Below are positions 4,590-63,505 of a stretch of 64,000 bases of DNA, one piece after another (within the stretch, counting starts at the first letter, position 1; the number at the start of each line of letters is the position of its first letter). The position numbers and the translations under genes are program-made. Under the pieces are notes generated by a model that saw nothing but the letters and a program-made list of their open reading frames with translations, had not been told where the DNA came from and searched no databases. This DNA comes from a virus (Duplodnaviria > Caudoviricetes), in IMG/VR virus record IMGVR_UViG_3300020577_006545, positions 23,074 to 87,073 of that record. One strand, given 5' to 3'.

Positions 4590-4979
4590 ATGAAATTAAT
4601 ACAAAAAATTTTATATAAAAGAAAGAAATGGTATGTTAAGAGAAATCGTTATAAAAGAAAACGCAGGATGTCGTTTAGAGAAATAAAAGTGTTGTGGGAT
4701 AAAATCAATAATACGCAATATAATAATGACGAATACTATTATGGACTTAGAAGTGTGTCGGATATTCTAACACAAATTCTTATTTCAAATCAAAAAAGTT
4801 TTCGTATATATTATTTTGATGATAATGATGTTTTTGATATGATTAAGATTATAGAAACAGTTAGAAATAGAGATGTATTAAGAAAAACGCTTACTGGTGG
4901 TATGATTTGCTTTAAATTCATTAGTGATTTAAGAATCACTAATAGTGAATTGTATTTGAAATACAGGCTTTTATTATAA
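4590..4979 (+). CDS. YEKYKLL-family protein
   Basis: Ends SELYLKYRLLL. Confidence 0.65.
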   Translation: MKLIQKILYKRKKWYVKRNRYKRKRRMSFREIKVLWDKINNTQYNNDEYYYGLRSVSDILTQILISNQKSFRIYYFDDNDVFDMIKIIETVRNRDVLRKTLTGGMICFKFISDLRITNSELYLKYRLLL

Positions 4980-5356
4980 TGGTAAATCATAAAATTTTAA
5001 AAATAAAAGGAACGGAGAACTCATTTATTCTTTCATCTGATGACACTAATACAATAAAAGTATTAATAAATAATGCTAATGATATTGCACTTGTTATTAC
5101 AGATATGATGAAACGGTTTGAAGAAAGTAGATTTCAAACTGAAATTTTGGGGTTTAAGGCAGATGCAGATGGAGTAGTGAAGTTTACTATGGAGTTTACG
5201 ATAGGAGAGACATTTGGAGAAATGACAGAAGACAAATTTCTTGAGTATTTGAATATCTATAGTGATGTTAAATATAAAAATTTTGTAAGAGCAATTAGAA
5301 ATGCATCTGTGCAATTTGATAAAATGTGCGAGAAATATAAACTATTAATTGAGTGA
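4979..5356 (+). CDS. YEKYKLL-family protein
   Basis: MTEDKFLEYL ... MCEKYKLLIE. Confidence 0.65.
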   Translation: MVNHKILKIKGTENSFILSSDDTNTIKVLINNANDIALVITDMMKRFEESRFQTEILGFKADADGVVKFTMEFTIGETFGEMTEDKFLEYLNIYSDVKYKNFVRAIRNASVQFDKMCEKYKLLIE

Positions 5357-5735
5357 AATTATGATTAAAGGAATGACTATAAGAACTTTTAACGAACTTG
5401 AAAAAGTTGTAAAATCATATTCTTCATTTTATGGGGAAGATGTTGATTTTAGAGTTGAAGAAATAGGAATTGGACATATTGAATTAACTTTCATTTTTTA
5501 TGAATTTAAGAGTGTTGAACTAATTAAAGAAGTGATGAAGGCAGTTAAACCTAACATAGTTATTAGTGTTAGATGTGATTGGCGTTTGTTTTTAGTTGCA
5601 ACAGATTTTACAGAAGAAGATTTTATACAATTTCTTACTGAAGAAAAACCAGATGAATGGGTGTTAAAATCAATTGCAGAAAATAATAAAAGAGTTGCTC
5701 TTTTGTGTGAAAAGTATAAACTATTAGTGGGGTAA
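5349..5735 (+). CDS. YEKYKLL-family protein
   Basis: FTEEDFIQFL ... LCEKYKLLVG. Confidence 0.65.
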   Translation: MSEIMIKGMTIRTFNELEKVVKSYSSFYGEDVDFRVEEIGIGHIELTFIFYEFKSVELIKEVMKAVKPNIVISVRCDWRLFLVATDFTEEDFIQFLTEEKPDEWVLKSIAENNKRVALLCEKYKLLVG

Positions 5736-5738
5736 AAT

Positions 5739-6005
5739 ATGAAAAAAATAATTTTAGTAATAATTCTATTAACATCTTGTGGTCTACCAAAACCAGATTG
5801 TACTAAGATTGGTGATAGTTATGACGATGTTGTTAAGAACTGTGGTAGACCGGATAAAATTGAATATAGAAATAGGTATGTTTCTTTCATAAATTATTAT
5901 GAAGGAGTATATTATTTAACAATTGGTTTTGATAGAGACATTGTAAATCAAATTCGTTATGATAATGGTAAAACAAAAACTGTAGATTATGGTAAGGAGG
6001 AATAG
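5739..6005 (+). CDS. putative lipoprotein
   Basis: MKK plus hydrophobic stretch and lipobox LTSC. Confidence 0.55.
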   Translation: MKKIILVIILLTSCGLPKPDCTKIGDSYDDVVKNCGRPDKIEYRNRYVSFINYYEGVYYLTIGFDRDIVNQIRYDNGKTKTVDYGKEE

Positions 6006-6007
6006 AA

Positions 6008-6325
6008 ATGCATATGATAGAAGAAAAAACAAAAGAGCAATTTAAAAAACAATTACAACTTACGCAAACAAATCTTACAGAAGAAGAATTGGAAAGAATT
6101 TCCAATTTTGCTATAAATTATTTTAGTAATCATTTACAATGTGTTAGAGAGATAGACGGATTTTTGCAATATGCTTTTAGATGGGGAATGTTAGATAATC
6201 CTTGGAAGACATTTGAAGATGAAAGAATTGGTGAAGACCAAAAAAGAAGTTGGAAAAATATTGAAGAATTGAGTATTAAATGCAGACAAGTGCATACCCC
6301 AAGTAATGGATTTAGTATAATTTAA
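6008..6325 (+). CDS. hypothetical protein
   Basis: ORF with SD in a colinear gene run. Confidence 0.45.
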   Translation: MHMIEEKTKEQFKKQLQLTQTNLTEEELERISNFAINYFSNHLQCVREIDGFLQYAFRWGMLDNPWKTFEDERIGEDQKRSWKNIEELSIKCRQVHTPSNGFSII

Positions 6326-6335
6326 GGAGAATTAA

Positions 6336-6746
6336 ATGAACGCAATGGAAATGGAAAGTGCAATGATTGGTTATGAAGCCGCTCAACAAGTAGCGATGAT
6401 GCTTGGAAGAGATTTGATTGCTTATAAAAATAAAGAAAATGAAAATTTTAAAATTGAAAAATGGGATTGGGGTGGAGTTGAATACGATCAAGGCGATCAG
6501 CATGTTCAAGTATATATTGAGAGATATTGTTGTGGTGAAAGTGACACAGAATGGATTAATATTCCATTTGAATGGTTTGATATGAAAAGAGAAGACATTT
6601 ACGCTATTATTGATAAAGAAAGAGAAGAGAAAAAAAGAATAGAAAAAGAAAGAGTTGAAGCGATGAAAAAACAAATGGAAGAAGAAACGCTTGCTGGCGA
6701 GAGAAGATTATACGAAAGTTTAAAAAGGAAATTTGAAAATGTTTGA
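6336..6746 (+). CDS. hypothetical protein with C-terminal coiled coil
   Basis: AAGGAG SD; charged helical tail. Confidence 0.5.
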   Translation: MNAMEMESAMIGYEAAQQVAMMLGRDLIAYKNKENENFKIEKWDWGGVEYDQGDQHVQVYIERYCCGESDTEWINIPFEWFDMKREDIYAIIDKEREEKKRIEKERVEAMKKQMEEETLAGERRLYESLKRKFENV

Positions 6747-8061
6747 AAAATTATTGAGTTTGATTAACACAAACCAGTTTCTAACTGGTGGTTTTATATT
6801 AGGATTACTTGGAGGTATCGCCGTCTATCTGAGAAGCGTTCCTGCAAACATATTATATTTTATAAGAAGGAGAATTGTGTTCTCTGTTGAAATTGAGAAC
6901 CATTATGCTTCTTTCCATATGTTCTCATACTGGCTTCAAAAACAGAAACCAGTATTTAAGAATAAGAATTTCTTCTTGAGAGAAGAACAGAGGATTTCAA
7001 GAAATGTTGAATTTGATGATGACGATGACGATGAGTTTGGCAATACAACTGGAAAAGAAAAAAGAAAAAATAAAATTTTCTATGTTCCATCAAGTGGGCT
7101 TCATTTCTTTAAATACAACAAGAAACTTCTTATTATCTATTTCTATAGAAAAGAAGTGAATAACACGAACTCGTCTCCAGAATTTGAAAGCCCATTCCGT
7201 TATTCATATACAATTTATATGTTTGGTAAAAACGAAGAATGCCAAAAAACTATTGATATGATTGTTGAAGAGAGTGGGGCAGAACTATCTAAAAAGACAG
7301 ATGGAAAAATCAAAATCCGCGCATCTGCTAATATTATAAGATATGGAGAAAATACATTTAACTGGAAACTTTCTGCATACAAACACCCAAGAACAAAAGA
7401 AACACTTGTTTTTGATGATGGTTTCTATGAAGATATTGAAAGTGATATTGATAAATTTCTTCATAATAAACAATGGTATAAAGAGAAAGGAATTCCTTGG
7501 AGAAGAGGTTATCTCCTTCACGGTGTCCCAGGTGGTGGTAAGACTACTCTTATTGAAACTATTGCTGGTAGATTTAATTTCAACATCAATATTCTTGATT
7601 TAATGAATGATAAACTGACAGACCAATATTTAATTGAATTGTTTGCTTCTAATAAAGACAATTCAATTATTGTTGTTGAAGACATTGACACAATCTTTGA
7701 GAAAAGAACGCCGACAAGTGATAAAGTAAAAATAACTTTTAGCGGTTTGTTAAACGCTATTGATGGCATTGCGTCTAAAGATGGGCAGATTATTTTTATG
7801 ACCACAAATAACATTGAAGTCCTTGACGATGCACTCAAACGGTCAGGTCGCCTTGACAAACACATTGAATTTGATTATGCAAGTGAACAACAAAAGAGAA
7901 AGATGTTTCTTAAATTCTTTAAAGAGGATGAGTTGAATGCTAATAAATTTATGGATATAATGAAAGGGGTAAATATATCTATGGCTAAATTACAGGAACA
8001 TTTCGTTCTTTACTCTTATGATGTAAATGCTATTTTTGAAAACATTGGAGAATTAAAATGA
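6733..8061 (+). CDS. BCS1-like membrane-anchored AAA+ ATPase
   Basis: N-terminal TM helix; WYKEKGIPWRRGYLLHGVPGGGKT (Walker A in BCS1-type context), VEDID, FSGLLNAIDG, RSGRLD. Confidence 0.85.
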   Translation: MKMFEKLLSLINTNQFLTGGFILGLLGGIAVYLRSVPANILYFIRRRIVFSVEIENHYASFHMFSYWLQKQKPVFKNKNFFLREEQRISRNVEFDDDDDDEFGNTTGKEKRKNKIFYVPSSGLHFFKYNKKLLIIYFYRKEVNNTNSSPEFESPFRYSYTIYMFGKNEECQKTIDMIVEESGAELSKKTDGKIKIRASANIIRYGENTFNWKLSAYKHPRTKETLVFDDGFYEDIESDIDKFLHNKQWYKEKGIPWRRGYLLHGVPGGGKTTLIETIAGRFNFNINILDLMNDKLTDQYLIELFASNKDNSIIVVEDIDTIFEKRTPTSDKVKITFSGLLNAIDGIASKDGQIIFMTTNNIEVLDDALKRSGRLDKHIEFDYASEQQKRKMFLKFFKEDELNANKFMDIMKGVNISMAKLQEHFVLYSYDVNAIFENIGELK

Positions 8062-9119: not shown

Positions 9120-9163
9120 TGAAAAAATGACAGTATACTAAGATTTCCATATAAGATAATATC

Positions 9164-11045: not shown

Positions 11046-11112
11046 TAGTACTACAACATCTTGAACTAGCGTTAATTTCAGCGTTTGCAACTTTTATTTT
11101 TGTGAGGGGTTT

Positions 11113-18505: not shown

Positions 18506-19123
18506 ATGTTATACCGTGTAAACCTTGAATTTAAACCCACCAAAATTCAATTACTTTCTGGTGTAGTTAGTTTTAACACTAATTGGATTTTAGACAGACA
18601 AAAATTTATTGATTGGATTTATAAAGAACCAATTCTGGTTGATCCGATGAAGCCTAATTCATCTTATCAACATGATATTAGGCAAAAAATGAGGGACGCT
18701 GGCAGTAACGGGTACAGCCACAGCGGAATGTTTAAAGTAGATAGTATAGAAATCTCATCAAATATTGATGAGAAAGAACTGACTGCTGACAAATTGAAAA
18801 ATTTACAAGGTGAGTATGTTGAAATAGCGTGTAAATTAAATTCTAAGTGTGAAAAGGTGTATGTATCGTTTTTAATTAATGTTGATTTATATGAAGGTAT
18901 TCACCGTCTTTTTAGAAGTTTGTTTGTTATCCCTAATGATTGGCTGATTGAAGAAAAAGGTTTCCCTTTAAATGAATATTCTTTAAGAGAAGAATGTTAT
19001 CAAGAACTTATTGCGAAAGAAGTTAATTTGGTTGCGTATGGTTATGCAATCACACAAAAGGATACATTTTTGCAAATAATGAATCCATCGCTTTATGAAA
19101 AATATGCGTTATTGAGAAATTGA
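18506..19123 (+). CDS. YEKYKLL-family protein (long)
   Basis: Ends NPSLYEKYALLRN; leaderless promoter TTGCAA-17-TAGAAT at 18470-18498. Confidence 0.65.
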   Translation: MLYRVNLEFKPTKIQLLSGVVSFNTNWILDRQKFIDWIYKEPILVDPMKPNSSYQHDIRQKMRDAGSNGYSHSGMFKVDSIEISSNIDEKELTADKLKNLQGEYVEIACKLNSKCEKVYVSFLINVDLYEGIHRLFRSLFVIPNDWLIEEKGFPLNEYSLREECYQELIAKEVNLVAYGYAITQKDTFLQIMNPSLYEKYALLRN

Positions 19124-19124
19124 T

Positions 19125-19358
19125 ATGAACAAATATGTAAAAGAAACTATAGAATTGATTAAATCACTTGAAGAAGAAGAGATACTTGAAATTCTTCTCT
19201 CTGAAAAGAGAGACAATCCTGTTGAACTAATGCCATTTATCAACAGGGACAAAGTTACTTTAGGGATTATTGTTCATAAGTTTCGTCCAGAAGTTGTAGA
19301 GAAATATAAGTTACTAATAGATGAGAAAGAAGATGAAGAACAATACTACGACGATTGA
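19125..19358 (+). CDS. YEKYKLL-family protein
   Basis: LEEEEILEIL ... RPEVVEKYKLLID. Confidence 0.65.
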   Translation: MNKYVKETIELIKSLEEEEILEILLSEKRDNPVELMPFINRDKVTLGIIVHKFRPEVVEKYKLLIDEKEDEEQYYDD

Positions 19359-19602
19359 TGAATTTAATACTACTCCATCAAGATTGCTTAGAAATTGTCT
19401 TGAGAATTTTAATAGTGGGTCGTATCTTATTTATAGATTTGGTAGAGAATTTTTGTCTTTAAGCGAAGATGAGAAAATAGAATTTATTATTTTATTAAAT
19501 CAAACAGAAGATATTAAAAACACATATTTATCAAGTCTAACAGCATTGATTATGGCAAGCGATATGGAGTTTTATGAGAAATACAAAGTTATCATTAACT
19601 GA
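19321..19602 (+). CDS. YEKYKLL-family protein
   Basis: LSEDEKIEFI ... MEFYEKYKVII. Confidence 0.6.
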   Translation: MRKKMKNNTTTIDEFNTTPSRLLRNCLENFNSGSYLIYRFGREFLSLSEDEKIEFIILLNQTEDIKNTYLSSLTALIMASDMEFYEKYKVIIN

Positions 19603-19921
19603 TATTAAAAGATACGGATTTAAGTATTTTCTACTTGAGTCGGATCATCCTGAGAATAAGGAAGGAAGTTTTGCGTGGAGTAAACTAAAATTTGTTTATG
19701 CAAACAAAGGGAAGGTGTATGTGGAAAATCAAATAGATTTATTAGATTTTGAAAAAATGCTTAAAGAAGCAACAGAAGAAGAATTGATAGAGTTCGTCAC
19801 TACTGCGAAACTTGTTTTTATTAATCTAAAAGCAAGAGAGATGTATGGGGAAAGAGGTGAGAAATATTTTGCCGCTGTGATACCAAAGTTCTATAAAAAA
19901 TATAAGTTACTATTTGCATGA
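19574..19921 (+). CDS. YEKYKLL-family protein
   Basis: TEEELIEFV ... PKFYKKYKLLFA. Confidence 0.65.
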   Translation: MRNTKLSLTDIKRYGFKYFLLESDHPENKEGSFAWSKLKFVYANKGKVYVENQIDLLDFEKMLKEATEEELIEFVTTAKLVFINLKAREMYGERGEKYFAAVIPKFYKKYKLLFA

Positions 19922-24116: not shown

Positions 24117-24896
24117 ATGGCTTGGAAAGCGGTATATAGTGTATACAATGAAGCAAAGTTTTTAGAAAAATCAATTATGAATATAATTGATGAGATGGAT
24201 AAAATCATTATAGTTGAGGGGTGTTGGTTAAATGGGGAGAAAATTACTGGCAGTTTAAGAAGCACCGATGGTACTATAGAGATTTTAGAAAGACTAAAAA
24301 AAACATACCCAAATAAATTTGAAATTTGTTATGAAAATAAATTAAATGAACAACGACAACGAGATAACTATTTAGAAAAACTTGAAGATGGTGATAATGT
24401 TCTATGGCTTGATGGAGATGAAATTCTTATTAAGAAAGAATTAAAAGAAGCAAAGACGTATGTTGAACATATGTTCAAGATAGGGCATCAAATGTTATTT
24501 GCACATTACATAAATGTGTTTGATGCAGGTGCAGTCAAAGACACTCATTTACGTGGCTTGTTTTTTAAATTTAGAAGCGATATAAGGTATCTTGATAATG
24601 AAAGGGCTAAAGGAAGTCCTGGTGAAGTTTATCTATTTGAAAATTATGGTAAAGGAAATCTCTATAACAAATCAATGCCAGTAATTGATTGGGATATAGT
24701 TAAGGTTTTTCATTTTAAATATTGTAAAGACCTTGATAAACTTGTTGAAAGAAGATTGATGTATGAGAGTGTTTGGAGGCAGTTACCAGATGAAAAATTA
24801 GAAGAAACAAGGATTTCATTAGAAGAGGAATATAAAACAAAATATAAATCAGGGTTAAAATTTGAAAATGTATATGAAGGAGAACTACCTATATGA
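24117..24896 (+). CDS. GT-A glycosyltransferase-like protein
   Basis: SVYNE, IIVEG, STDGT, LDGDE. Confidence 0.7.
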   Translation: MAWKAVYSVYNEAKFLEKSIMNIIDEMDKIIIVEGCWLNGEKITGSLRSTDGTIEILERLKKTYPNKFEICYENKLNEQRQRDNYLEKLEDGDNVLWLDGDEILIKKELKEAKTYVEHMFKIGHQMLFAHYINVFDAGAVKDTHLRGLFFKFRSDIRYLDNERAKGSPGEVYLFENYGKGNLYNKSMPVIDWDIVKVFHFKYCKDLDKLVERRLMYESVWRQLPDEKLEETRISLEEEYKTKYKSGLKFENVYEGELPI

Positions 24897-25219
24897 TGAT
24901 TACAAGTATAAATAGAGCAACTGTTGAAATGAGATTGAATCCAGATGAATACGAAGCTTTAATGCAATTGTTTAGGAACTCATACAATGGGGCTATTGGC
25001 GGTATGGATTACAATAGTATAAAGTTTGCAAATTTTGTGACTAATACATTAACTGCTGATATTATTGAAAGTAATAAATGTAATGAAGATTTTCTATTAT
25101 CACTTTTAAATGGTTCAACATCAGTAATTGTTGATGGCAATACTGTTGATTTTAAATATTATGCAAAATCTCGTCTACCTGAATTTTCAGAGAAATACAA
25201 GTTATTATTGAATGAATAA
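24893..25219 (+). CDS. YEKYKLL-family protein
   Basis: CNEDFLLSL ... PEFSEKYKLLLNE. Confidence 0.65.
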   Translation: MMITSINRATVEMRLNPDEYEALMQLFRNSYNGAIGGMDYNSIKFANFVTNTLTADIIESNKCNEDFLLSLLNGSTSVIVDGNTVDFKYYAKSRLPEFSEKYKLLLNE

Positions 25220-25502
25220 TTTTAGTTTTACAACTTCCATATCGTCATCAGTAATTGATGGTATGGATGAGGACAGATTGTTAGAAGAAGTTTTATTAGC
25301 GATTAAAAATGACAATTTAAATCATTTTGCAGTTACAGTTGCCACATTAGTTGAATACGATAGTAATAACGATATTTATGAAAGGCAATCTGTTTTAGAA
25401 CATCACGATGAAAGTTTTGACATATCTTATTATGCCTTATCAGAGTATCTACAAAAATTTAGAAAAGAATTTTATGAAAAGTATAAATTATTATTGGAGT
25501 GA
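25212..25502 (+). CDS. YEKYKLL-family protein
   Basis: MDEDRLLEEV ... KEFYEKYKLLLE. Confidence 0.65.
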   Translation: MNNFSFTTSISSSVIDGMDEDRLLEEVLLAIKNDNLNHFAVTVATLVEYDSNNDIYERQSVLEHHDESFDISYYALSEYLQKFRKEFYEKYKLLLE

Positions 25503-25768
25503 CTATGTGGTTTAATGAAACGAAAAAACCAAAAGATATTTTGTCAAGTGTAAAAATAAGAGAGATTACAGAGGATAACTTTCTTTTATGGATAATGACG
25601 ATCAATAATCATCCAGAATTAGATATTAGAAAATATCAAGTTCAAATTGAAGATGTTGACGAAGTAATTGAACAAAAATTTTCATTATTTCAATTGGTAC
25701 CATTAGCAGAATATTTAAAAGAAAGCCGTCCTGATTTTTATGAAAAGTATAGACTATTATTGGAGTGA
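25499..25768 (+). CDS. YEKYKLL-family protein
   Basis: ITEDNFLLWI ... RPDFYEKYRLLLE. Confidence 0.65.
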   Translation: MTMWFNETKKPKDILSSVKIREITEDNFLLWIMTINNHPELDIRKYQVQIEDVDEVIEQKFSLFQLVPLAEYLKESRPDFYEKYRLLLE

Positions 25769-26535
25769 GTATGTTAAAAAATGACGTAATAATTGTAATT
25801 CCAACCTGGAATGCTAAAAATTTAATATTGAAAGCGGTTAATTCCGTTATTGCACAAGAAAGAAAGAACTTTAGTCTTGGTATTATTATTAGAGATGATT
25901 TAAGTGACGACGGGACGTATCAGGAATTAACAAATTTTTTCAAAATGGGTGCAATAAACGAAGAATACTTTAAAATAGATGACGTTGATTTTGTTTTCAA
26001 AAGAAATGCAGAAAAACTGTATGCTCCTGGTAACATTTATGAAAGTGTTTTAGACTATGTTGATAATGATGAGGCAATAATAGGAACATTAGATGGTGAT
26101 GATAGTCTTATTGGGACAACTGTTCTTAAAGAAATTTACGATATATATCAAAAACATAATCCATTAGTTGTTTATACACAATACAAAAACAATTCAGGTG
26201 GAATAGGACATTGTGCAAGAATAGAAGACACTGCAAATTATAGAAGCAGAGGACAATGGTGCAGTTCTCATTTTAGAACAGCAAAAGCGCACCTGTATAA
26301 GAAGATAATAAAAGAGGACTTGATGTATAACGGTGACTATTTTAAACAGGGTGGAGATTTGGCATTAGTATATCCACTGGTTGAGATGGCTGGCAATGAT
26401 AGAACAATATTCTACGATAAAGTTTGTTATTTATATAACAATAACCTACCAACAAATGACCATAATATGAATTTAAACGGTCAGAGACAAATGGCTAAAA
26501 TTATACAATCAAAAGAACCTTACGCCCAATTATGA
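25765..26535 (+). CDS. GT2-family glycosyltransferase
   Basis: VIPTWN, RDDLSDDGT, LDGDD. Confidence 0.85.
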   Translation: MSMLKNDVIIVIPTWNAKNLILKAVNSVIAQERKNFSLGIIIRDDLSDDGTYQELTNFFKMGAINEEYFKIDDVDFVFKRNAEKLYAPGNIYESVLDYVDNDEAIIGTLDGDDSLIGTTVLKEIYDIYQKHNPLVVYTQYKNNSGGIGHCARIEDTANYRSRGQWCSSHFRTAKAHLYKKIIKEDLMYNGDYFKQGGDLALVYPLVEMAGNDRTIFYDKVCYLYNNNLPTNDHNMNLNGQRQMAKIIQSKEPYAQL

Positions 26536-26843
26536 TAGAGACAGGACGAAAATATATATCAATATCTAAAAATTTAATGGTGTTACGTTTTGAGGTAACT
26601 CTGTATGATCCAGAAAACCTTGAACCAAAAGAAGTTAAAAGACTTCAAGTTTCGGACACACAATTGAACGAATGTAGTGAAGATGATTTTATAGCATTAG
26701 TGTCTTATTTTAATCAGAACCCAGGGTTCATTTATGAAATACATGAAATGTCTAGTCCATCAAGAAAAACTTTTTTTGCAGATTGGGTGAAAAAATATAA
26801 AATCAGTTGGTATGAAAAGTACCGATTGTTAATACCGGAGTAA
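26532..26843 (+). CDS. YEKYKLL-family protein
   Basis: CSEDDFIALV ... SWYEKYRLLIPE. Confidence 0.65.
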   Translation: MIETGRKYISISKNLMVLRFEVTLYDPENLEPKEVKRLQVSDTQLNECSEDDFIALVSYFNQNPGFIYEIHEMSSPSRKTFFADWVKKYKISWYEKYRLLIPE

Positions 26844-37470: not shown

Positions 37471-37983
37471 ATGGTTTATTACAGTAGCAACGGGAACATA
37501 TCACATATAGATTTAGAAAGAGAAAGTTCCCCTGACTACATTTTAGAAGCAGTTAAAAGCGGATACAAAGTAAGATTTTGTATCCGCTTAATGAGTGACG
37601 ATAATCTCTGGATAGGTGAACATGAGGCAAAGTATAAAATAGAAGACATTGATTTTCTATTTAAAAATTCAAAACATTTCTTAATACATTGTAAGAACAT
37701 AAGTTCATTACATAAATTACGTGAGATTGATTTAAAAAAACAGTTGCATTATTATTATCATGCAACAGATAATGTATCAATTTCTTCAAAAGGATATTTC
37801 TTAATAGATTATGGTAAACGGCCTCTTGGAGAAAATGTTATTGCGATGTTTCCAGAAGACACAGATTATCAGATAAGTGATTTGAAAAAATGTTTTGGTG
37901 TATGTTCAGGCAACATAGAATTCTATAAGAAATTAATTGAAAATGAAACATCTGGAAGTAATACAAAATCAATATCTGCCTGA
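37471..37983 (+). CDS. degenerate glycerophosphodiesterase-like protein
   Basis: Follows the ISHRGN..EN.P.YI..A...GYDVEID pattern, but those residues are replaced (SNGN, KVRFC). Confidence 0.45.
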   Translation: MVYYSSNGNISHIDLERESSPDYILEAVKSGYKVRFCIRLMSDDNLWIGEHEAKYKIEDIDFLFKNSKHFLIHCKNISSLHKLREIDLKKQLHYYYHATDNVSISSKGYFLIDYGKRPLGENVIAMFPEDTDYQISDLKKCFGVCSGNIEFYKKLIENETSGSNTKSISA

Positions 37984-38440
37984 AAATTTAGAAGAAGTGA
38001 TGGAGGTAGTTATTGATACTATTCCTAAATTATCATTTCTTGATAAAACGACAAAAATTGATGTTAAATTTGACGCGCAAGCGATTAGAGCATCAGTGTT
38101 TAAAAGTAATAATATGGACACATTTATGTCAAAAATTGTAGTTAATCTATATCCATATTTGAACGATTTAAAATTATATTTTGCAAGAAGAAGAGTTGGA
38201 GAACACTTTACTCTTTCTATTGAGGATGTAGCGGATTACCATAGATTTCATATTATAGTTCCTTATTATCTTCTTGATTTTAAAGCATTAACAGAAGAAG
38301 AAAAAATTTACTGTGTTGAACAAATAGGTAAACACTACAAGTTTAATCTAACATTAGACCCGCACGACATTGGTAATGTTATGTGGATAAAGGAACATGA
38401 TTTTGAATTCTATCACAAATACAGGTTACTATTACAATGA
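37937..38440 (+). CDS. YEKYKLL-family protein
   Basis: FKALTEEEKIYCV ... FEFYHKYRLLLQ. Confidence 0.65.
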   Translation: MKMKHLEVIQNQYLPENLEEVMEVVIDTIPKLSFLDKTTKIDVKFDAQAIRASVFKSNNMDTFMSKIVVNLYPYLNDLKLYFARRRVGEHFTLSIEDVADYHRFHIIVPYYLLDFKALTEEEKIYCVEQIGKHYKFNLTLDPHDIGNVMWIKEHDFEFYHKYRLLLQ

Positions 38441-39051
38441 ATATAAATTTTACAAATGAGAAGACTTTACAAGGTCTTAAGCTATCAAACTTTCTTCATA
38501 TCAAAGAAAGGAGGTTTGTCAATTCTGTTAAAGAAAAAATAGTAAGTGTTATTAATGATAAACTACAAAAACAGGAATTATTTACTTTATGTGAAATTGA
38601 GTTTGATAATGATTTTACTAAATTAGAAAGTTTATCAAATGAGAAAAAAATGATTTTGTCAGTGTTTCACGAAACAGAAGTTGAAAATAACATACTCCCA
38701 ATCTATGTGACGTTGCATCTGTTTACAAAAAATTTGAAAATGTATTTGTTTAATAGAACACTGTTAAAAGAACAAATTGCAAGATTTTTTACATACGAAG
38801 AAAAATTTTTTTATGAAAAAACTGAATACCTTCTAACTATGATGACAGGGGCATTCTGCCTTGATTTTAAAGAATTGCCAGAAGAAGAAAAATTAACTGC
38901 ACTTGATATATGCAAAGATACCCCATTGTTTTTATATCCTCCTAATATTGGCTCTCCAGTTTTTCATAATGTAAGACCCACTCTTGATATAGATTGGGTA
39001 AGACAAAATGATACCCTATTTTATCAAAAATACCGATTATTATTTGAGTAA
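38437..39051 (+). CDS. YEKYKLL-family protein (long)
   Basis: FKELPEEEKLTAL ... LFYQKYRLLFE. Confidence 0.65.
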   Translation: MNINFTNEKTLQGLKLSNFLHIKERRFVNSVKEKIVSVINDKLQKQELFTLCEIEFDNDFTKLESLSNEKKMILSVFHETEVENNILPIYVTLHLFTKNLKMYLFNRTLLKEQIARFFTYEEKFFYEKTEYLLTMMTGAFCLDFKELPEEEKLTALDICKDTPLFLYPPNIGSPVFHNVRPTLDIDWVRQNDTLFYQKYRLLFE

Positions 39052-47834: not shown

Positions 47835-48821
47835 ATGAAGGTTGATTTACTTGTAATAGGCGCAGGGATAACTGGAACTTGGGTTGCGCTAACAGCGGCA
47901 AGAAAAGGTTTATTTGTTGTTGTTTACGATGATGGTAAAGAAGGGATTACCGCAAGAAATTCAGGTGTGCTACACGCAGGTCTTTATTATCCACAAAATA
48001 ACAAAGCGTTTCATTGTGTGCGTGGGAGAGAATGGACAGTTGGCTTTTTACATCAGCATAATGTCCCATATAATCTTTGTGGAAAATTAGTTGTTGGTGA
48101 TGAAGATAGCGTGCAGAAACTTGAAGCAAATGCAAGAACGAACGGTGTTCAAAATTTAGAGATTGTAAATCCACAAAAATTCTCAGATAATATAGTTGGT
48201 AAGTATGCGTTACATTCTAAAGACACTGGTATAGTTGATGTCCCATCTTATATGAAAAGATTAAGAGCGGTAGCGGAAACAGAAGGAGTTATATTTTTAA
48301 GAAATAAAGAAGAAGAACTTGAACCGACATATGTGGTAAATGCGGCTGGACTTTACAGTGATGAGATCGCTAAGGAGTTAGGTTTGCAGGGGTATGAAAT
48401 ACGACCAAACAAAGGAGAATATTATAGATTGAAAAGAACATTCCCTTTAAAGAAATTGGTTTATCCTGTTCCAAACCCAAAAGAGAAGGGAGCATTAGGT
48501 GTTCATTTTACTTTCAATATGAATGATGAATGTTATGCTGGACCATCAACAAGAGATGCTAAAAATAAAACAGATTATGAAATTGAGACTGATGCTGAAA
48601 CATTTCACAATTCTCTTTCTCGTATTTTGAATTATTATACAATTGAAGATTTTGTAGAAGGTTATGTTGGGTTAAGACCACGACTATATTTTAATGGAGA
48701 ACATTTTACTGATTTTGCGATTGTAGAATTTAATAAAGCAATTCATTTACTTGGCATTGAAAGCCCTGGGCTTACGTCAGCACCATCAATTGCATTTTCA
48801 GTTGTAGAGAGACTTGTATGA
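47835..48821 (+). CDS. FAD-dependent oxidoreductase, L-2-hydroxyglutarate oxidase-like
   Basis: IGAGITG, TARNSGVLHAG, VNAAGL, KGEY, GLRP, GIESPGLT. Confidence 0.85.
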   Translation: MKVDLLVIGAGITGTWVALTAARKGLFVVVYDDGKEGITARNSGVLHAGLYYPQNNKAFHCVRGREWTVGFLHQHNVPYNLCGKLVVGDEDSVQKLEANARTNGVQNLEIVNPQKFSDNIVGKYALHSKDTGIVDVPSYMKRLRAVAETEGVIFLRNKEEELEPTYVVNAAGLYSDEIAKELGLQGYEIRPNKGEYYRLKRTFPLKKLVYPVPNPKEKGALGVHFTFNMNDECYAGPSTRDAKNKTDYEIETDAETFHNSLSRILNYYTIEDFVEGYVGLRPRLYFNGEHFTDFAIVEFNKAIHLLGIESPGLTSAPSIAFSVVERLV

Positions 48822-49180
48822 TAGCAGAAAGAAATGAAATAGAGGAAAAAATACAGGCATTATATCCGCGTTTTGTAAAAGAAATGCCGTCACAAATTAA
48901 ACAGCAAATAGTCAACAATTATTTCAATAAAATTGAAAATGATTACAGAGGAACTCCGTCATATCCTAACTATATTAAATATACAGATTTAACAGAACTT
49001 GACAAACTAAAATATATAGATCAAAAGATTTATGTAGATGAACAAGTGTTGGTGTTAGTTGAAGACCCAGGGAAAGGAACCAAATTTTCTGTTATGATGA
49101 ATTTAGTATTCAACGATTTTGTTAAATACAGAGATAGAGAATTTTTTGAAAAATACAAACTACTTTTTGAGTATTACTAA
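48818..49180 (+). CDS. YEKYKLL-family protein
   Basis: YTDLTELDKLKYI ... DREFFEKYKLLFE. Confidence 0.65.
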   Translation: MIAERNEIEEKIQALYPRFVKEMPSQIKQQIVNNYFNKIENDYRGTPSYPNYIKYTDLTELDKLKYIDQKIYVDEQVLVLVEDPGKGTKFSVMMNLVFNDFVKYRDREFFEKYKLLFEYY

Positions 49181-50011: not shown

Positions 50012-50012
50012 T

Positions 50013-50966: not shown

Positions 50967-50978
50967 TAAGACTAAAAG

Positions 50979-51010
50979 GGCGGCTATCGTACGATAGCCG
51001 TCTGTCTTTT
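50979..51010 (+). terminator. hairpin/terminator between ssb and the recombinase
   Basis: 20-bp perfect palindrome CGGCTATCGTACGATAGCCG followed by TCTGTCTTTT. Confidence 0.7.
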
Positions 51011-51032
51011 GAAATCTAAACAAAGGAGTATT

Positions 51033-52367: not shown

Positions 52368-52378
52368 GATAATACAGT

Positions 52379-52744
52379 ATGGCGCACAATACCGCAATAT
52401 TGGGTAAAGTTTTATTAGAACTTATCAAAAAGTTCTTTTCAGATCAGGCAATTCTGAAAAGGGAGGAAGACACAGCCTCATTACAGGCAGAATTCACTCC
52501 CCTTTCAGATGCTCTGAAAGTAAAATGTGAAGCATATAATAAACAACAAGAAGAAGCCAACGGAGACGAAATTTTAATAGCGAAATTGGATTGCAATGAT
52601 CCAGTTGCTGTAGCTAAAATATTTCCAGACGAAGCAAAAGCTATAGCTGAAATACAAAAGAAGATAGATGATATAAACAAACCACCTGACCTATCACAAT
52701 TAGAAAAGATAATCAAACTCTTAATTCAGAGTGCTAAAAAATAG
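52379..52744 (+). CDS. hypothetical protein, homologous to the N-terminus of the next ORF
   Basis: FFSDQ...KCEAYN...DCND shared with 52767. Confidence 0.65.
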   Translation: MAHNTAILGKVLLELIKKFFSDQAILKREEDTASLQAEFTPLSDALKVKCEAYNKQQEEANGDEILIAKLDCNDPVAVAKIFPDEAKAIAEIQKKIDDINKPPDLSQLEKIIKLLIQSAKK

Positions 52745-52766
52745 ACCTTAACATAAGGTAACAGTA

Positions 52767-55700: not shown

Positions 55701-55865
55701 CATTTGGCACTTCATTTGATGAGGTTTGCTACATTGAAGCCGGTTACAGAGCCAATTCCTAATCCGATATTCTGGTTTGGGCTTCCGCCATTCATTCCTC
55801 CGTTTGAAGTGCCGCCAACATTCATACCAGGACCAGGAATTTTAACAACGGGGTACATATATTAA
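52767..55865 (+). CDS. 1032-aa protein with coiled coils and Pro-rich C-terminus, possibly virion-associated
   Basis: Long ORF; heptad-like QL..L..QI segments; hydrophobic stretch near aa 180; ends PIPNPIFWFGLPPFIPPFEVPP. Confidence 0.6.
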   Translation: MSLLFGIPDWVLSPQDMKNDFGFSQDKLKAMNEYLQNFYSDQQVILREAEKAVLNDALLAASGDIKSKCEAYNTSLEAQNQNSDVILQGRIDCDDLNSIATVFSGEVANYNNIVNKLATVDDVDASFIPVLTELQMDKGIVEGHKKLLRKFLLHVMINGVYIFDFLGIPIRIDLGKYVNSVLSVAAGIIQLISLISMFSGQFNPPFGSYTIPIPTALSQANLTTTCQEMYYLGIKTYNKLHSAYLKKLNEQITEHNSDENVAARTAEYEQIKDQYEQQLKDLVAQIDAEIKKLEAQLGVDLGNISTQQEANDEILVSKVFFFPPGGEQITYSGECYNGIIKELDYLDAYCSGAIDLIKPNTDLIQLYNDFVRNNIVKSYADYIALKTASEDAVIDAETFNSINNNSGMVKISESYTGMFLGTSYLSTTDVYDSGILKNSLDIIFNKTKTDQIKDFFPYYEAYTDINQKAAVDTAIKTFKPYVDTPVYDTLTELSNVIDEIGSDFNPQRTNNYEARVMFSDYNVGFVMARVPIVELAVTPIVSKLETEINDLKSQISVADSEDIPSLQSQLDNVVAIYNVNKEVVNKLERIRLYYEKKPLQYLIDATTFMIDLTNFQLKLGGIITDEFGNQTEAPITDDVIVNMTEVEKLYADDKRTYDNMVDKKIIATEFTKSIKNFSGSEIVTVANGQTVVTSEFESEYFQIDYNITKLGDVDKETQNLIDQSIAENQEQSQLALSNSQTLAIQANEASKNVIYTYSKNAVLKIIKYYMNEEEEINKKLDARRLFITTTIKTLQDQIADLQNQLINNASADVSLIANVQARVDTERATLQEKIIVLQTELDALPVKLDLKSYYMYLICSPIIRLQTQLAEAQAQLNAGQDGFKAFKIPIDPFDELYNGCYHIIKAYMKHLYTYFRGISLLYNFGFPWTTIVRFKPEFLSHSFISISAKNLADDINSGGGGNFFDQLINFFVGNKLKKHLALHLMRFATLKPVTEPIPNPIFWFGLPPFIPPFEVPPTFIPGPGILTTGYIY

Positions 55866-56251: not shown

Positions 56252-56527
56252 GTGCCCGATATGAAAACACAAAAAAGAGAAATTTTAATTTTAAATGAAG
56301 GTCAGAGTGGAAAGACAATAAGTGAAGAAGAATTTATTGGGTTGGCAACTAACCCAAAGAAAGGAGTTCGTCAACGTATCCATACAAAAGATGGCAAAGA
56401 AATATACGTTGTATTTGATAGGGATTATATTTTCAGTCAGAGAAAAGACCTTGTTGAAAAATACAAACTTTTAATTGATGAGAATGTAATAGCAAAAGAC
56501 GAAGAAGACGATGAGGAATTTTTTTGA
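56252..56527 (+). CDS. YEKYKLL-family protein
   Basis: ISEEEFIGLA ... DLVEKYKLLID. Confidence 0.65.
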   Translation: MPDMKTQKREILILNEGQSGKTISEEEFIGLATNPKKGVRQRIHTKDGKEIYVVFDRDYIFSQRKDLVEKYKLLIDENVIAKDEEDDEEFF

Positions 56528-56820
56528 TGACAGGTGGAATTAAAAGACAGTTCATTTTTGATAATTACGAAGATTTTACAGAAGAGGAAAAACTTCTTTA
56601 TCTTCAAGAAGGAGATGACGGTGTTCATAATCAAGTAACAGAGAAAGGTGGAAAACTAATTGATTTTGATTTATACATCTTCAAATATGATAGAGAATTT
56701 TACGAAAAATATAAATTGTTATTTAATGAAGAAGAAATTAAAAAGAAATATCTAATGAATGAATTAATGAACGGTGCTAAATGGGAGTTGTATGGTATAA
56801 CAGATGCGTACAAGTTCTAA
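56524..56820 (+). CDS. YEKYKLL-family protein
   Basis: FTEEEKLLYL ... DREFYEKYKLLFN. Confidence 0.65.
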   Translation: MMTGGIKRQFIFDNYEDFTEEEKLLYLQEGDDGVHNQVTEKGGKLIDFDLYIFKYDREFYEKYKLLFNEEEIKKKYLMNELMNGAKWELYGITDAYKF

Positions 56821-57082
56821 TATTAATATGTCTCTTGAAATATTAAAAGCAAGTGAGTATGTCTTCTTAACAGAAGAAGAGAAATTGAAATATGTTGGTC
56901 TTTGGGAATTGATGTATGACGATTTGAAGATTAAAAATTATGTCGTAATTGACTACTATATCTATCTAAACGACAGAGAGTTTTATGACAAGTATCTTTT
57001 GTTGTTTGACCAGAATAAAATAGCAGAGATGGAAAGACTGGAGCCAGAAAAATGGTTAATAGGAATTGATGTAAATGAATAA
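56804..57082 (+). CDS. YEKYKLL-family protein
   Basis: LTEEEKLKYV ... DREFYDKYLLLFD. Confidence 0.65.
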   Translation: MRTSSNINMSLEILKASEYVFLTEEEKLKYVGLWELMYDDLKIKNYVVIDYYIYLNDREFYDKYLLLFDQNKIAEMERLEPEKWLIGIDVNE

Positions 57083-57350
57083 AATAATAAAAGAATATGC
57101 TTATAAAAACTTAACAGAAGAAGAGAAGATTGGTTTAATTGGAGATTACAATAATCTTGGTGATATGTTTTCTTCTGGAATTTCTGTTCAAGTAGACTTT
57201 TCAGAAAATAGATTTATGGTCATTGACTTAATTGAATATATGAATGACAATGATAGTCAATTTTATGAAAAGTATAAATTACTATTTCAAGAAAGAGGAT
57301 TTGTTTTTAATATGGATTGTATAATTATTGACGACAAAGGAGTTAAATGA
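57075..57350 (+). CDS. YEKYKLL-family protein
   Basis: LTEEEKIGLI ... SQFYEKYKLLFQ. Confidence 0.65.
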   Translation: MNKIIKEYAYKNLTEEEKIGLIGDYNNLGDMFSSGISVQVDFSENRFMVIDLIEYMNDNDSQFYEKYKLLFQERGFVFNMDCIIIDDKGVK

Positions 57351-60367: not shown

Positions 60368-60730
60368 GTGGTATCTAGATATTTTCATTATCGCTATGAA
60401 TTCACTTACATATTATGTAAACAGGGATTGAAATATATGCTTCTGCCTGACAGCCATAATATCGTTACTATTAATACGGTAGACGGACAGAGGTACTGGT
60501 ATGAACACGATGAGTTTAAAGAGGCAATTATTGTTAGAGAAAAGCCGTGTGATAACAATACATCAGTATATTCTGTTTCTTTTGAAACAATGCAATTAGC
60601 GTTTAATAAAAAAGAAGATTATTTTTTGGATTCATATATAAATGGGATATGGGATAAAGAACATTTGAAATTATTTGTCAAATTTTTTAAACCTGAAATC
60701 TACCAAAAATACAAATTATTATTCACATGA
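60368..60730 (+). CDS. YEKYKLL-family protein
   Basis: Ends FVKFFKPEIYQKYKLLFT. Confidence 0.65.
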   Translation: MVSRYFHYRYEFTYILCKQGLKYMLLPDSHNIVTINTVDGQRYWYEHDEFKEAIIVREKPCDNNTSVYSVSFETMQLAFNKKEDYFLDSYINGIWDKEHLKLFVKFFKPEIYQKYKLLFT

Positions 60731-61038
60731 TTACTTTATATAATTTACCAAAAAATCATGTGTTTATTGATGGTCGTGAATACTGGTATGAAAAAGAAAC
60801 TCGTCATAAGCAAGGCGATGGTGTTGTAAGGATATACGAAGAAAAAAATGATAAAAGATTTCATCAAGTGTTTTACATAACAGAGATGGTTCTTGACATT
60901 TTATCTAATTTAGACGAAGATGATATTCTTTATTTTGCAATGAAAAAGAAAAAAACATTTCTTATCACTGATTTTAATTCTTATGTTAAATTTTTCCGTC
61001 CAGAGACTTATGAGAAATATAGATTGCTATTTGAATAA
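60727..61038 (+). CDS. YEKYKLL-family protein
   Basis: LDEDDILYF ... YVKFFRPETYEKYRLLFE. Confidence 0.65.
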   Translation: MITLYNLPKNHVFIDGREYWYEKETRHKQGDGVVRIYEEKNDKRFHQVFYITEMVLDILSNLDEDDILYFAMKKKKTFLITDFNSYVKFFRPETYEKYRLLFE

Positions 61039-61094
61039 ATTACTTGCATAAATTCTTAGTCTTTGTTATACTTTATTATAATTGAGAGATTGAT

Positions 61095-61355
61095 ATGTAT
61101 TTTACTGTTCAACCAACAAAGGAAGAGTCTATAACTATACATTTTGATTATGATGATATTGAACAGGCTATATTTGAATTATCAAACGAAGGAGATGATA
61201 TTTTAGTATATCAATCTTATATCGTTAATGGATTACAACAACAAAGATTAAAAGCGTCATATAGAAAAAGTGTTTTTGTAATAATGTTAAAACAATTTAA
61301 GCCTGAACTTTATGAGAAATATAAATTATTATTAACGGAGTATGAAATTGCATAA
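61095..61355 (+). CDS. YEKYKLL-family protein
   Basis: Ends LKQFKPELYEKYKLLLTE. Confidence 0.65.
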   Translation: MYFTVQPTKEESITIHFDYDDIEQAIFELSNEGDDILVYQSYIVNGLQQQRLKASYRKSVFVIMLKQFKPELYEKYKLLLTEYEIA

Positions 61356-62125
61356 TTTAAATAAAACAGTATTATCGTTATCAATCTATACGGCATTTCT
61401 TGCCTATGCATTAGGGAATGATTGGCTGTATGTCCCAGCAGGATGTATGTTTCTCGCTTCTGTTATAAGTGAGATTGGTGGAAGGCTTCTTGACAATAGA
61501 AGATTGCCAATTAAGACGCTTGCAGAAATAGAAGAAAGTAAAATTGAACCTGTTGTCAGGGAACAGAAAGAGGAAGAAGTAAAACAACCAGAAGTAAGAG
61601 TTCTTAAAATTCAAAAAGATGACAGTGAATTTATTGAACAGAAAAAAGCATTAATTAAAAAAGCGATAGATAATGGTTATAAACTTATTAAAGAAGAGTT
61701 TATACCGGAGGAATTAAACCAATGAGAAAATTAATAGTGTTCGCATTAGTGTTAACTGGATGTTTTCAATCTACTAAATATGACTGCACAAAAACAGATT
61801 TGGATAAGACATTAAAAGTCTATGAGATATGTATGAAGAAGGTTGAGGGTTTTGTTAATGAACTTAGTAACAAAGGGACACTGACTTACAGTCTAAGTCC
61901 TGCCTGTATGCAACAGGCTAAAGAACTTACTTGTATTCCAATGGAGAAATGAAAATGATTTTAGCAAAATTTGTTCTAATAATTGTGTGGTGGAGTGGCA
62001 ATTCAATAGTGGCACCATTTCATTCTGCTGATGCGTGTGAAGCGGCATTGAAAGAAATAGTTTATAGTACAAAGTCTGTTCGCGCTCCGCTTTCTGCTAA
62101 GTGTCATTGGACGGGACTATAATAT

Positions 62126-62497
62126 ATGAAAGAAATTAAAATTAAAAAAGAACACATCGCTCTACTTAATAGAGCCTATGTAAGATGGGAAGATGGCGAA
62201 TTTGGCGCACCTGCTATTGATTGTAAAAGACCATATGGGAATAGTAGTGTTGTAGAGGACATTATTGAAATTATAAAACCCAAGATACCTGCAAAAGTAA
62301 AAGAATTACTTGATGATGGTTCAATAGATTTAGAACAAGCCTTCACAAGTAAAGAAATTGAACAATTTGAAAAACTACATCAAGAAACTGAATTTGTTCT
62401 TCAAATCATTTTACGAAATGTTAATAAATCGCCAAAGAGTTTGATAGGTAAAACTTTTGTTATTAATGATAGTTATCAATGGGTAGAGAAAAAATAG
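62126..62497 (+). CDS. hypothetical phage protein
   Basis: EFGAPAIDCKRPYGNS motif, recalled from phage hypotheticals but not verified. Confidence 0.5.
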   Translation: MKEIKIKKEHIALLNRAYVRWEDGEFGAPAIDCKRPYGNSSVVEDIIEIIKPKIPAKVKELLDDGSIDLEQAFTSKEIEQFEKLHQETEFVLQIILRNVNKSPKSLIGKTFVINDSYQWVEKK

Positions 62498-62507
62498 GAG
62501 AAATGAT

Positions 62508-63008
62508 ATGGGCGCAGATATCCATTTTTACACAGAAATTAAAATAGAAAACGAGTGGCATCCGATTTATATGCCGATGCCAGAAGATGCTTTTAAAACA
62601 GAATTGAAAAGACACGAAGGATATTTTAATAATCTTACTAATACTTATTGGGAAGATTATTATTCAAAGAAGAACTACGCTAATTATTCTGGAAGAAATT
62701 ATTATCTCTTTACATTCCTTGCTGGAGTAAGAGGAAATGAAAACCCTCTTATTGAACCAAGAGGATTACCAGAAGACTGCTCAAAACTTATTAGAAGAGT
62801 TTGTGAGAAATGGGGGAGTGACGGACATTCCCATACTTATTACTATTTAAGTGAATTGATGGAATGTGATTGGAAAGATTGGTTTCAAGATGATGCCGAA
62901 GATAACAAATATGGTCATCCACTTGCTGGATTTTTTGAAGAATATCTTCCAAGACTTTATGGACTTGACCCTGACAGAACGAGATTTGTAATGTTTTGGG
63001 ATAATTGA
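62508..63008 (+). CDS. conserved-type hypothetical phage protein
   Basis: MGADIH...RNYYLF..LAGVR...PRGLPED...HSH pattern; GGAG SD. Confidence 0.6.
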   Translation: MGADIHFYTEIKIENEWHPIYMPMPEDAFKTELKRHEGYFNNLTNTYWEDYYSKKNYANYSGRNYYLFTFLAGVRGNENPLIEPRGLPEDCSKLIRRVCEKWGSDGHSHTYYYLSELMECDWKDWFQDDAEDNKYGHPLAGFFEEYLPRLYGLDPDRTRFVMFWDN

Positions 63009-63163
63009 TTGAGGTAATTTATGAGTAGAATAATTTGGACATTAATAGGAATTTCAATAGGAATACTTATTTACTTATACATTGGCGAAAAGGCGGTGAT
63101 GTGGTTTTGTGGTGGATACTTATTTGGAGCATTTAGACAACAATACTATAATAGTTTTGAAAA

Positions 63164-63505
63164 ATGAAAACAAAGATTTACAAAAATAGATTTTGTGATT
63201 TAAATACAAGACCAAATCCAGAACTTCTTAAAGATTGTTTCTTTCCAGAAGAGATAAAAGGATTGGTAAGTATTTATCAAATGTCTTATGTTGAAATAGT
63301 TGAAGAAACGGAATTATGGGCAAGTATTCAAAGTGAATTAGATTTCATTAATCTAATTAATTCTAAAATTTATGTGATTAGTAGGCACAGCGTTGGTTTT
63401 GAACATTCAGAGCGCCCATATTCTGGTGGTGTGATAATGAATATATATCTAAAACTTCATTATTCAAGATTGTACGATAAGTATAAATTGTTATTTGATA
63501 ATTAG
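63164..63505 (+). CDS. YEKYKLL-family protein
   Basis: SELDFINLI ... SRLYDKYKLLFDN. Confidence 0.65.
   Translation: MKTKIYKNRFCDLNTRPNPELLKDCFFPEEIKGLVSIYQMSYVEIVEETELWASIQSELDFINLINSKIYVISRHSVGFEHSERPYSGGVIMNIYLKLHYSRLYDKYKLLFDN

Follow-up and report, generated by a model that had tools for sequence, protein, structure and literature searches.

A small, predicted folded domain behind a shared EFYEKYKLL ending, amplified in a clade of huge uncultured phages

Introduction

What do many small proteins of one phage have in common when they share little beyond their last ten residues? The question is raised by a 64,000-nucleotide stretch of DNA (the window: bases 23074-87073 of one 87,073-bp contig of 31% G+C, IMG/VR virus record IMGVR_UViG_3300020577_006545), in which 23 small open reading frames (ORFs) end in, or close to, variants of the sequence EFYEKYKLL. 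A preliminary description of this DNA had proposed a C-terminal tag or docking helix fused to diverse payloads. Our analysis supports that interpretation in part: the family is real and undescribed, and it is a folded domain rather than an address tag. The shared unit comprises 55-70 residues, and 12 of the 25 members now recognised carry no payload. Positions refer to the window unless a contig is named, and members are named by their first listed position.

A family of 25 proteins with a common signature

All 23 ORFs exist on the plus strand. At or near the end of each lies the motif [PRDK][ED]-[FL]-Y-E-K-Y-[KR]-L-L-[FLI], in which K and Y are invariant, and the looser form x-K-Y-[KRAL]-[LV]-[LI] is found at or near the C-terminus of every one. 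The core KY[KRAL][LV][LI] occurs 23 times in plus-strand ORFs, whereas 500 shuffles of the residues gave 0.67 on average and never more than 4; it is absent from the minus strand of the window.

Within the ten-residue motif, 49% of the identical residue pairs differ in codon (AAA/AAG, TAT/TAC, TTA/CTA/TTG/CTT), and the nucleotide identity of the ten motif codons is just 66%. This indicates selection on the peptide, as had been proposed, and not a DNA repeat. The same values argue against a DNA element (repeat, terminator, promoter or homing site) that is read as peptide, an explanation favoured by recurrence alone: all copies stand in frame at ORF ends on the coding strand, and the ratio of nonsynonymous to synonymous substitution rates (dN/dS) between orthologs lies well below one, as given below. 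An artefact at the DNA level is refuted, with a probability that is practically nil.

To define membership, we built a profile from the last ~70 residues and searched it across the 87-kb contig. It splits 25 members from all other ORFs of the contig (E ≤ 3e-6 with the wider profile A3, ≤ 2e-4 with the first seed profile), namely the 23 listed ORFs and two on the minus strand upstream of the window; inside the window the profile search found no member beyond the 23. The claimed family of 23 ORFs is real and is extended to 25. The chain ends within four residues of the motif in 17 of the 23 window members, while six (19125, 56252, 56524, 56804, 57075 and 61095) have tails of 7-32 residues past it. 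Eight listed starts are probably a few codons early, the likely ones being 5361, 24896, 25505, 37943, 56261, 56527, 56828 and 60440, according to database orthologs and to gene calls on a near-identical metagenome contig (L023; ENA ERZ4216102 NODE_1, 356,254 bp). The members are the following, with their E-values; L015 is a 183-kb contig, a more distant syntenic relative of the window.

4590..4979, plus strand: family member, 129 aa; ELYLKYRLLL at the end; E 2.4e-7; L015 ortholog at 59% identity
4979..5356, plus strand: family member, 125 aa; motif KMCEKYKLLIE; E 4.5e-8
5349..5735, plus strand: family member, 128 aa; LLCEKYKLLVG; E 2.8e-6; start probably 5361 (124 aa), from P0035
16963..17178, plus strand: family member, domain only, 71 aa; motif PELYEKYKLLLT; E 6.7e-13
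18506..19123, plus strand: family member, 205 aa, with an extension of ~140 aa that has no Pfam match; E 4.5e-8; the most divergent domain (KYALLRN)
19125..19358, plus strand: family member, 77 aa, with a 13-aa acidic tail after the domain; PEVVEKYKLLI; E 9.6e-17
19321..19602, plus strand: family member, 93 aa; motif MEFYEKYKVIIN; E 7.6e-15
19574..19921, plus strand: family member, 115 aa; motif PKFYKKYKLLFA; E 6.6e-11
24893..25219, plus strand: family member, 108 aa, start probably 24896; motif PEFSEKYKLLLNE; E 1.5e-15; overlaps the stop of a GT2 glycosyltransferase gene
25212..25502, plus strand: family member, 96 aa; motif KEFYEKYKLLLE; E 1.6e-12
25499..25768, plus strand: family member, 89 aa, start probably 25505; motif PDFYEKYRLLLE; E 1.3e-18
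26532..26843, plus strand: family member, 103 aa, overlapping the stop of a GT2 gene; motif SWYEKYRLLIPE; E 5.7e-17
37937..38440, plus strand: family member, 167 aa, start probably 37943 (165 aa); motif FEFYHKYRLLLQ; E 2e-14
38437..39051, plus strand: family member, 204 aa, with an extension of ~135 aa; motif TLFYQKYRLLFE; E 7.3e-12
48818..49180, plus strand: family member, 120 aa, overlapping the stop of a gene for a DAO-type flavin adenine dinucleotide (FAD) oxidoreductase; motif REFFEKYKLLFEYY; E 1.9e-14
56252..56527, plus strand: family member, 91 aa, start probably 56261, with an acidic tail ending EEDDEEFF; KDLVEKYKLLI; E 1.8e-14
56524..56820, plus strand: family member, 98 aa, start probably 56527, with a 32-aa tail; REFYEKYKLLF; E 8.1e-18
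56804..57082, plus strand: family member, 92 aa, start probably 56828, with a 25-aa tail; REFYDKYLLLF; E 1.4e-14
57075..57350, plus strand: family member, 91 aa, residues 1-71 being the modelled domain; SQFYEKYKLLF; E 2e-19
60368..60730, plus strand: family member, listed as 120 aa, start probably 60440 (96 aa), which is backed by a 96-aa gene call in L023; motif PEIYQKYKLLFT; E 3.4e-8
60727..61038, plus strand: family member, 103 aa; motif PETYEKYRLLFE; E 3.7e-14
61095..61355, plus strand: family member, 86 aa, with a 7-aa tail; motif PELYEKYKLLLTEYEIA; E 2.2e-13
63164..63505, plus strand: family member, 113 aa; motif SRLYDKYKLLFDN; E 5.7e-12
contig 7591-8049, minus strand: family member upstream of the window; profile match
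contig 19106-19405, minus strand: family member upstream of the window; profile match

The shared ending belongs to a predicted domain

Alignments show that conservation in the family spans ~55-70 residues, in two blocks. The terminal block reads [VI]-x-[FL]-x-[ED]-[YF]-[IVL]-K-x-x-[DR]-P-E-[FL]-Y-E-K-Y-[KR]-L-L-[LIF]-[ED], and 35-60 residues before it stands an upstream block, [LM]-[TS]-E-[ED]-[ED]-x-[LI]-x-[LFY]-[ILV]. This second block had been overlooked when the N-terminal parts were described as unrelated, a statement that otherwise holds by BLAST except for the extensions of 37937 and 38437, which are related to each other (E 4e-5). Both blocks are present in an alignment of 87 domains, where a handful of mostly charged residues are near-invariant (E in 75/87, E/D in 83/87, K in 86/87, Y in 87/87 and K/R in 81/87), although the paralogs are otherwise only ~20% identical.

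AlphaFold2, given residues 1-71 of the 57075 protein and a 42-row family alignment, yields a compact β-α-α-β-β-α-α model with a predicted local distance difference test score (pLDDT) of 91 and a predicted template modelling score of 0.77. Its elements are β(4-6), α(7-11), α(15-27), β(37-43), β(46-51), α(52-59) and α(61-66 plus 68-70). The mean pLDDT of the motif-bearing residues 51-70 is 95-96, and the region of variable length corresponds to the β2-β3 hairpin. In this model the motif is the last helical element of a ~65-residue domain, whose last two helices hold RPEFYEKYKLL[FLI][ED], and the upstream block starts helix 2. The second conserved block and the confidently predicted compact fold together indicate that the shared ending belongs to a domain and is no separable tag, and we consider a domain family, as opposed to a tag, very probable.

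The domain has a median isoelectric point (pI) of 5.0. The grand average of hydropathy is negative in 22 of the 23 window members and +0.04 in the remaining one, and no hydrophobic segments were found in them. We considered whether the longer members contain the domain twice and rejected this, since the second-domain matches have independent E-values of at least 40.

Extensions and tails

The number of residues ahead of the domain is 16 or fewer in 12 of the 25 members, 23-54 in seven and 67-143 in six. About half of the members are bare domain, and the rest carry unrelated N-terminal extensions or short, often acidic C-terminal tails. Paralogs of the extensions that lack the domain are absent from the 87-kb contig, and the 135-aa extension of 38437 finds only close orthologs among 5.8 billion proteins. 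The longer members of the window and of L027, a 21-kb contig described below, have no significant Pfam match. An AlphaFold2 model of the 204-aa 38437 member, from a 5-row alignment, has a pLDDT of 39 and is uninformative on the extension. We also looked for fusions to known domains: among 1.84 billion representative proteins no domain match is longer than 206 aa, and a word search for longer proteins with the domain found none, which is weak evidence. What emerges is a small domain to which lineage-specific appendages may be added, rather than cargo bearing a tag.

In the 4590 member the domain follows a strongly basic N-terminal stretch of 27 residues (window 4590-4670), which is extremely basic in composition: KILYKRKKWYVKRNRYKRKRR. 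The whole protein has a pI of 10.1 and a net charge of +16, the remaining family being mostly acidic.

In two members the motif is followed by an acidic tail with an aromatic end (window 56456-56527, ...DEEDDEEFF; window 19299-19358, ...DEKEDEEQYYDD), and the ortholog P0009 retains such a tail, ...DDEEEEEFF. Single-stranded DNA-binding proteins such as Escherichia coli SSB and T7 gp2.5 have acidic, aromatic-ended C-terminal tails that dock partner proteins, and the tails of the two members resemble these.

Comparison with databases

Searches of the 23 members against Pfam-A, PHROGs v4, NCBIfam 20 and PADLOC-DB 2 revealed no recurrent family; single library matches have E ≥ 7e-4 and lie under the curated cut-offs. 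The preliminary description had not recognised the family; none of its members matches a Pfam family, and it remains without a counterpart in these libraries. Against PDB sequences the family profile gave nothing below E 0.5, and the best Foldseek matches of the domain model have E 0.85 (PDB) and 0.22 (BFVD). Comparison of the predicted domain by VIA-align gave no match, and the ESM Atlas no usable match. A literature search on motif strings and sample accessions returned nothing relevant, and one on paralog families of jumbo phages nothing useful. We treat the domain as undescribed and make no claim of a novel fold, which weak or missing matches do not show. A degenerate DNA pattern for FYEKYKLL matched 12 loci in IMG/VR; none of them has the domain, and all were rejected as chance matches.

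Amplification in huge phages

A profile search of 1.84 billion proteins found 38 at E ≤ 1e-3, all derived from metagenomes. A word-based search returned 12, likewise only from metagenome sources; all of these are unnamed and lack Pfam domains. About half of the database matches are the window's own proteins or those of near-identical strains. Orthologs of single paralogs were found at 92, 79, 63 and 35% identity.

The window itself is, to judge from its relatives, a piece of a huge phage genome, because the 356,254-bp L023 is syntenic with window 51-64 kb and nearly (in part fully) identical to it, and the 183-kb L015 is syntenic as well. The phage has no close relative in culture: megablast of window 50100-55865 against cultured phages gave no match, and the UvsX-like protein shares at most ~37% identity with its counterpart in any cultured phage, so that no annotated relative is usable for comparison.

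On the 87-kb contig the 25 copies occur in runs of 2-4. L021, a 115-kb contig of 35% G+C, has 18 copies in 17 kb, 13 of them consecutive, and L027 has 17 matches in 12.9 kb, eight consecutive, with members of up to 273 aa. L023 carries 13 copies in 20 kb, two lying past the end of the window, and adjacent family copies are found even on the very short contigs L019, L020 and L022. The multi-copy tandem layout is seen in every lineage with enough DNA to judge. The domain is amplified in a clade of huge uncultured phages of ~31-35% G+C.

L021 also encodes tubulin, SbcCD and a split Pol III alpha. Its tubulin-family protein (PF00091; L021 11042-12157) adjoins Mre11- and SbcC-like genes and lies between two family arrays.

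The family genes stand close together in tandem runs with translational coupling, surrounded by replication and glycosylation genes. Eight members lie among glycosyltransferase, methyltransferase and HAD genes (window 13152-40927), and three (24893, 26532 and 48818) overlap the stop codon of an upstream enzyme gene by 4 nt. A link to a glycosylation island was rejected as a general explanation, as the L021 and L027 arrays have other neighbours, and the proximity to glycosylation genes may be incidental.

Selection and divergence of individual copies

In 11 orthologous pairs (window against L015, L022 and L023) the proportion of nonsynonymous differences, pN, is smaller than that of synonymous differences, pS, both upstream of the terminal block and within it. 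The dN/dS ratio is 0.09-0.44 in nine of these pairs; the other two are saturated at synonymous sites and also have pN < pS. Since these values are low and pN < pS holds outside the motif too, the family members are, on the evidence of sequence comparison, real and constrained genes under purifying selection.

The copies have diverged at very different rates. Comparison of the window with L023 shows some identical copies and one of only 61% identity, and three neighbouring copies are 89, 59 and 42% identical between the window and L015; overall, identities of syntenic copies within a single pair of phages run from 100% down to 35%. The lower end is reached in L022, where the first two copies in an array of four otherwise orthologous genes (544-816 and 777-1112) share 75% and 82% identity with window 56252 and 56524, whereas the third (1116-1418) is just 35% identical to the copy at the same position (window 56804-57082). 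Single copies seem to have been replaced or to have changed very fast. Such uneven divergence of syntenic copies is typical of accessory genes.

A tree of 56 domains is mostly unresolved (median terminal branch 1.06, two well-supported forks, partial clustering of L021) and gives no order of duplications. It fits a mixture of old paralogs and local duplications without proving it. The family has the features of a viral multigene family, with many tandem paralogs in one genome that are individually retained under purifying selection.

Possible functions of the family

The best overall explanation, and on balance a probable one, is a multigene family of small acidic protein binders built on one scaffold. 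We infer this from the soluble and acidic character of the proteins, the coupled gene runs, the lack of a constant neighbour, the amplification and the uneven rates. How such binders would work can be put forward only tentatively. Members would be soluble, mostly acidic cytoplasmic proteins that act through binding other proteins, and together they would form a diversified accessory, host-takeover or counter-defence set on a common scaffold. The hydrophobic residues of the two conserved blocks would form the core of the domain, and the specificity of each paralog would be carried by the variable-length β2-β3 hairpin and the appendages. The near-invariant charges, E-E where helix 2 begins and K-Y-K/R in the last helix, exceed what a hydrophobic core needs. 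They would either hold the fold together as an internal salt-bridge lock or present a common contact surface to a single shared partner.

Several points weigh against binders on a simple scaffold. The fold is predicted from a shallow alignment of 42 rows, many of which are paralogs of one genome, and the buried or exposed status of the conserved residues is judged from the sequence. The invariant K, K/R, E and E/D go beyond the usual needs of a scaffold and favour a shared ligand or partner over wholly independent targets. In addition, the mixed neighbouring genes offer no functional hint.

If there is such a partner, the members could be adaptors in which a conserved face, made of the acidic start of helix 2 and the K-Y-K/R-L-L helix, docks each of them onto one phage or host protein, while hairpin, extensions and tails recruit or block different targets and the bare-domain members serve as competitors or regulators. 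This would account for charged residues that are near-invariant among such diverged paralogs, for the 17 window members that end at or next to the motif, for unrelated extensions of up to ~200 aa on the same domain, and for the same layout in four phage lineages. However, no candidate for the hub was found and no gene is constantly adjacent; half of the members lack any cargo; no extension matches a known domain or was found apart from the domain; and the conserved charges can equally be explained by an internal salt-bridge network. We therefore regard hub-docking adaptors as rather unlikely, and as slightly less likely again a docking module that plugs dozens of small proteins into one hub, a counterpart of the F-box/PRANC or SOCS-box modules. 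The one machine re-targeted by a large set of fast-evolving adaptors could then be a protease, the replisome, RNA polymerase or an AAA+ ATPase, the BCS1-like protein encoded at 6733-8061 being an example of the last.

The many co-expressed paralogs with a common helical end might instead associate with one another, as homo- or hetero-oligomers held by the conserved helices, and build an intracellular or internal-virion structure, for which the paralogous inner-body proteins of phiKZ-like phages provide an analogue. The size of the phage and the tubulin gene beside the arrays of L021 are compatible with such a role. It is nevertheless improbable: the proteins are very small and acidic and show no coiled-coil or repeat character, there are no structural genes and no prohead protease nearby in the DNA examined, and syntenic copies diverge far more unevenly than expected for the parts of one assembly. 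Still more improbable is a literal portable tag, a ~10-residue address for capsid packaging, export or degradation that can be moved to any cargo. The last ten residues are indeed the most conserved and usually terminal, but conservation extends over the whole domain, into which AlphaFold2 folds the motif, and in six members further residues follow it. Neither among the 1.84 billion proteins nor in the search for longer proteins was there one of known domain with the motif, the IMG/VR pattern matches are chance occurrences without the domain, and the genes lie among replication and glycosylation genes, not among structural genes.

Comparison with known systems

The binder family that we favour resembles known multigene families of large viruses. 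The Bcl-2-like proteins of poxviruses (A49, A46, N1) and the multigene families (MGF) of African swine fever virus (ASFV) are families of small, diverged paralogs. Like these, the phage family is made up of many strongly diverged paralogs that share one small fold and stand in tandem in a large viral genome; they are kept as orthologs in relatives and evolve at uneven rates, and binding of different targets is presumed. The nearest working analogue of the address-tag idea is the PRANC/F-box-like C-terminal domain (PF09372) of poxvirus ankyrin proteins, which docks variable N-terminal parts onto Skp1 and is likewise a short, conserved helical C-terminal module found across many paralogs of one large virus. 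To our knowledge, PRANC always follows a large ankyrin-repeat payload, whereas half of the members of the phage family have no payload, and their domain is α/β, ~65 aa long and without a match in Pfam, PRANC included.

Resemblances to shorter signals are more limited. Clamp-binding C-terminal peptides, such as bacterial QL[SD]LF or the tails of T4 gp43, gp33 and gp55 that bind gp45, also place a hydrophobic ending of the L-L-F type on otherwise unrelated proteins of one phage. They are disordered tails on proteins of known function, with a conserved Q at the start or an S/T-L-D-F-L pattern, in contrast to the invariant K-Y of the phage family, whose segment is predicted to be helical and packed within a 65-aa domain. 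The β-clamp motif (QL[SD]LF or QLxLxL) is not present: the family ending has no Q, carries K/R where L is required and is predicted to be an ordered helix. The capsid targeting sequence of T4 internal proteins, which is N-terminal, ~10 aa long and cleaved by the prohead protease, is similarly a short peptide shared by diverse small phage proteins; the shared part of the family differs in being C-terminal, folded (as predicted) and much longer.

Small acidic phage inhibitors of CRISPR or restriction systems, e.g. AcrIIA4 with its αβββαα fold, resemble the family in size (70-130 aa), in being acidic, soluble, small α/β sandwiches, and in the rapid turnover of the accessory regions that carry them. 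In contrast to them, the family gave no sequence match and no clear fold match to a solved structure, and we know of no phage inhibitor that is amplified to dozens of copies per genome.

With the family profile, ~25 unnamed small genes on 87 kb, and dozens in relatives, become one definable family. Its fold is predicted with confidence, its sequence signature is clear, and the curated libraries searched contain no relative of it. Virus families engaged in host-virus conflict show the same combination of dense amplification, here reaching 13 genes in a row, and uneven divergence, which makes the family promising for new host-takeover or counter-defence activities. If it is true that the conserved face binds one common partner, the family would constitute a modular adaptor system, and we know of no earlier example in a phage. 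The profile is also a practical metagenome marker for this clade of huge phages.

Genes around the family

Nearly all genes of the window are on the plus strand, and no tRNA genes were found in its DNA. Recognisable phage-like genes include those for a UvsX/RecA-type recombinase, a DnaB-type helicase and an SNF2-type helicase, and others encode a Ro60/TROVE protein, a BCS1-like AAA ATPase, several glycosyltransferases and a primase; upstream of the window, the 87-kb contig carries ribonucleotide reductase and peptidase/lysin genes. The genes near family members are heterogeneous (primase, GT2, GT1, FkbM methyltransferase, HAD, DAO oxidoreductase), and a survey of neighbours found none that is constantly adjacent.

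The BCS1-like AAA ATPase (window 6733-8061; BCS1_N, AAA and BCS1 lid domains, E 1e-10 to 3e-20) is encoded ~1 kb downstream of the first family cluster. In mitochondria, BCS1 is a translocase of folded proteins. A 1032-aa ORF at window 52767-55865 has no Pfam or PHROG match, and its length and position are kept in the 356-kb relative (L023 1241-4339). The Ro60/TROVE gene (window 509-1975, minus strand; E 3e-17) is conserved in the 183-kb relative (L015 4618-6090). That contig also encodes, at L015 11215-13983, a ribonucleotide reductase large subunit with an intein (PF14890), followed by a second ribonucleotide reductase fragment; the corresponding gene on the contig of the window encodes 820 aa.

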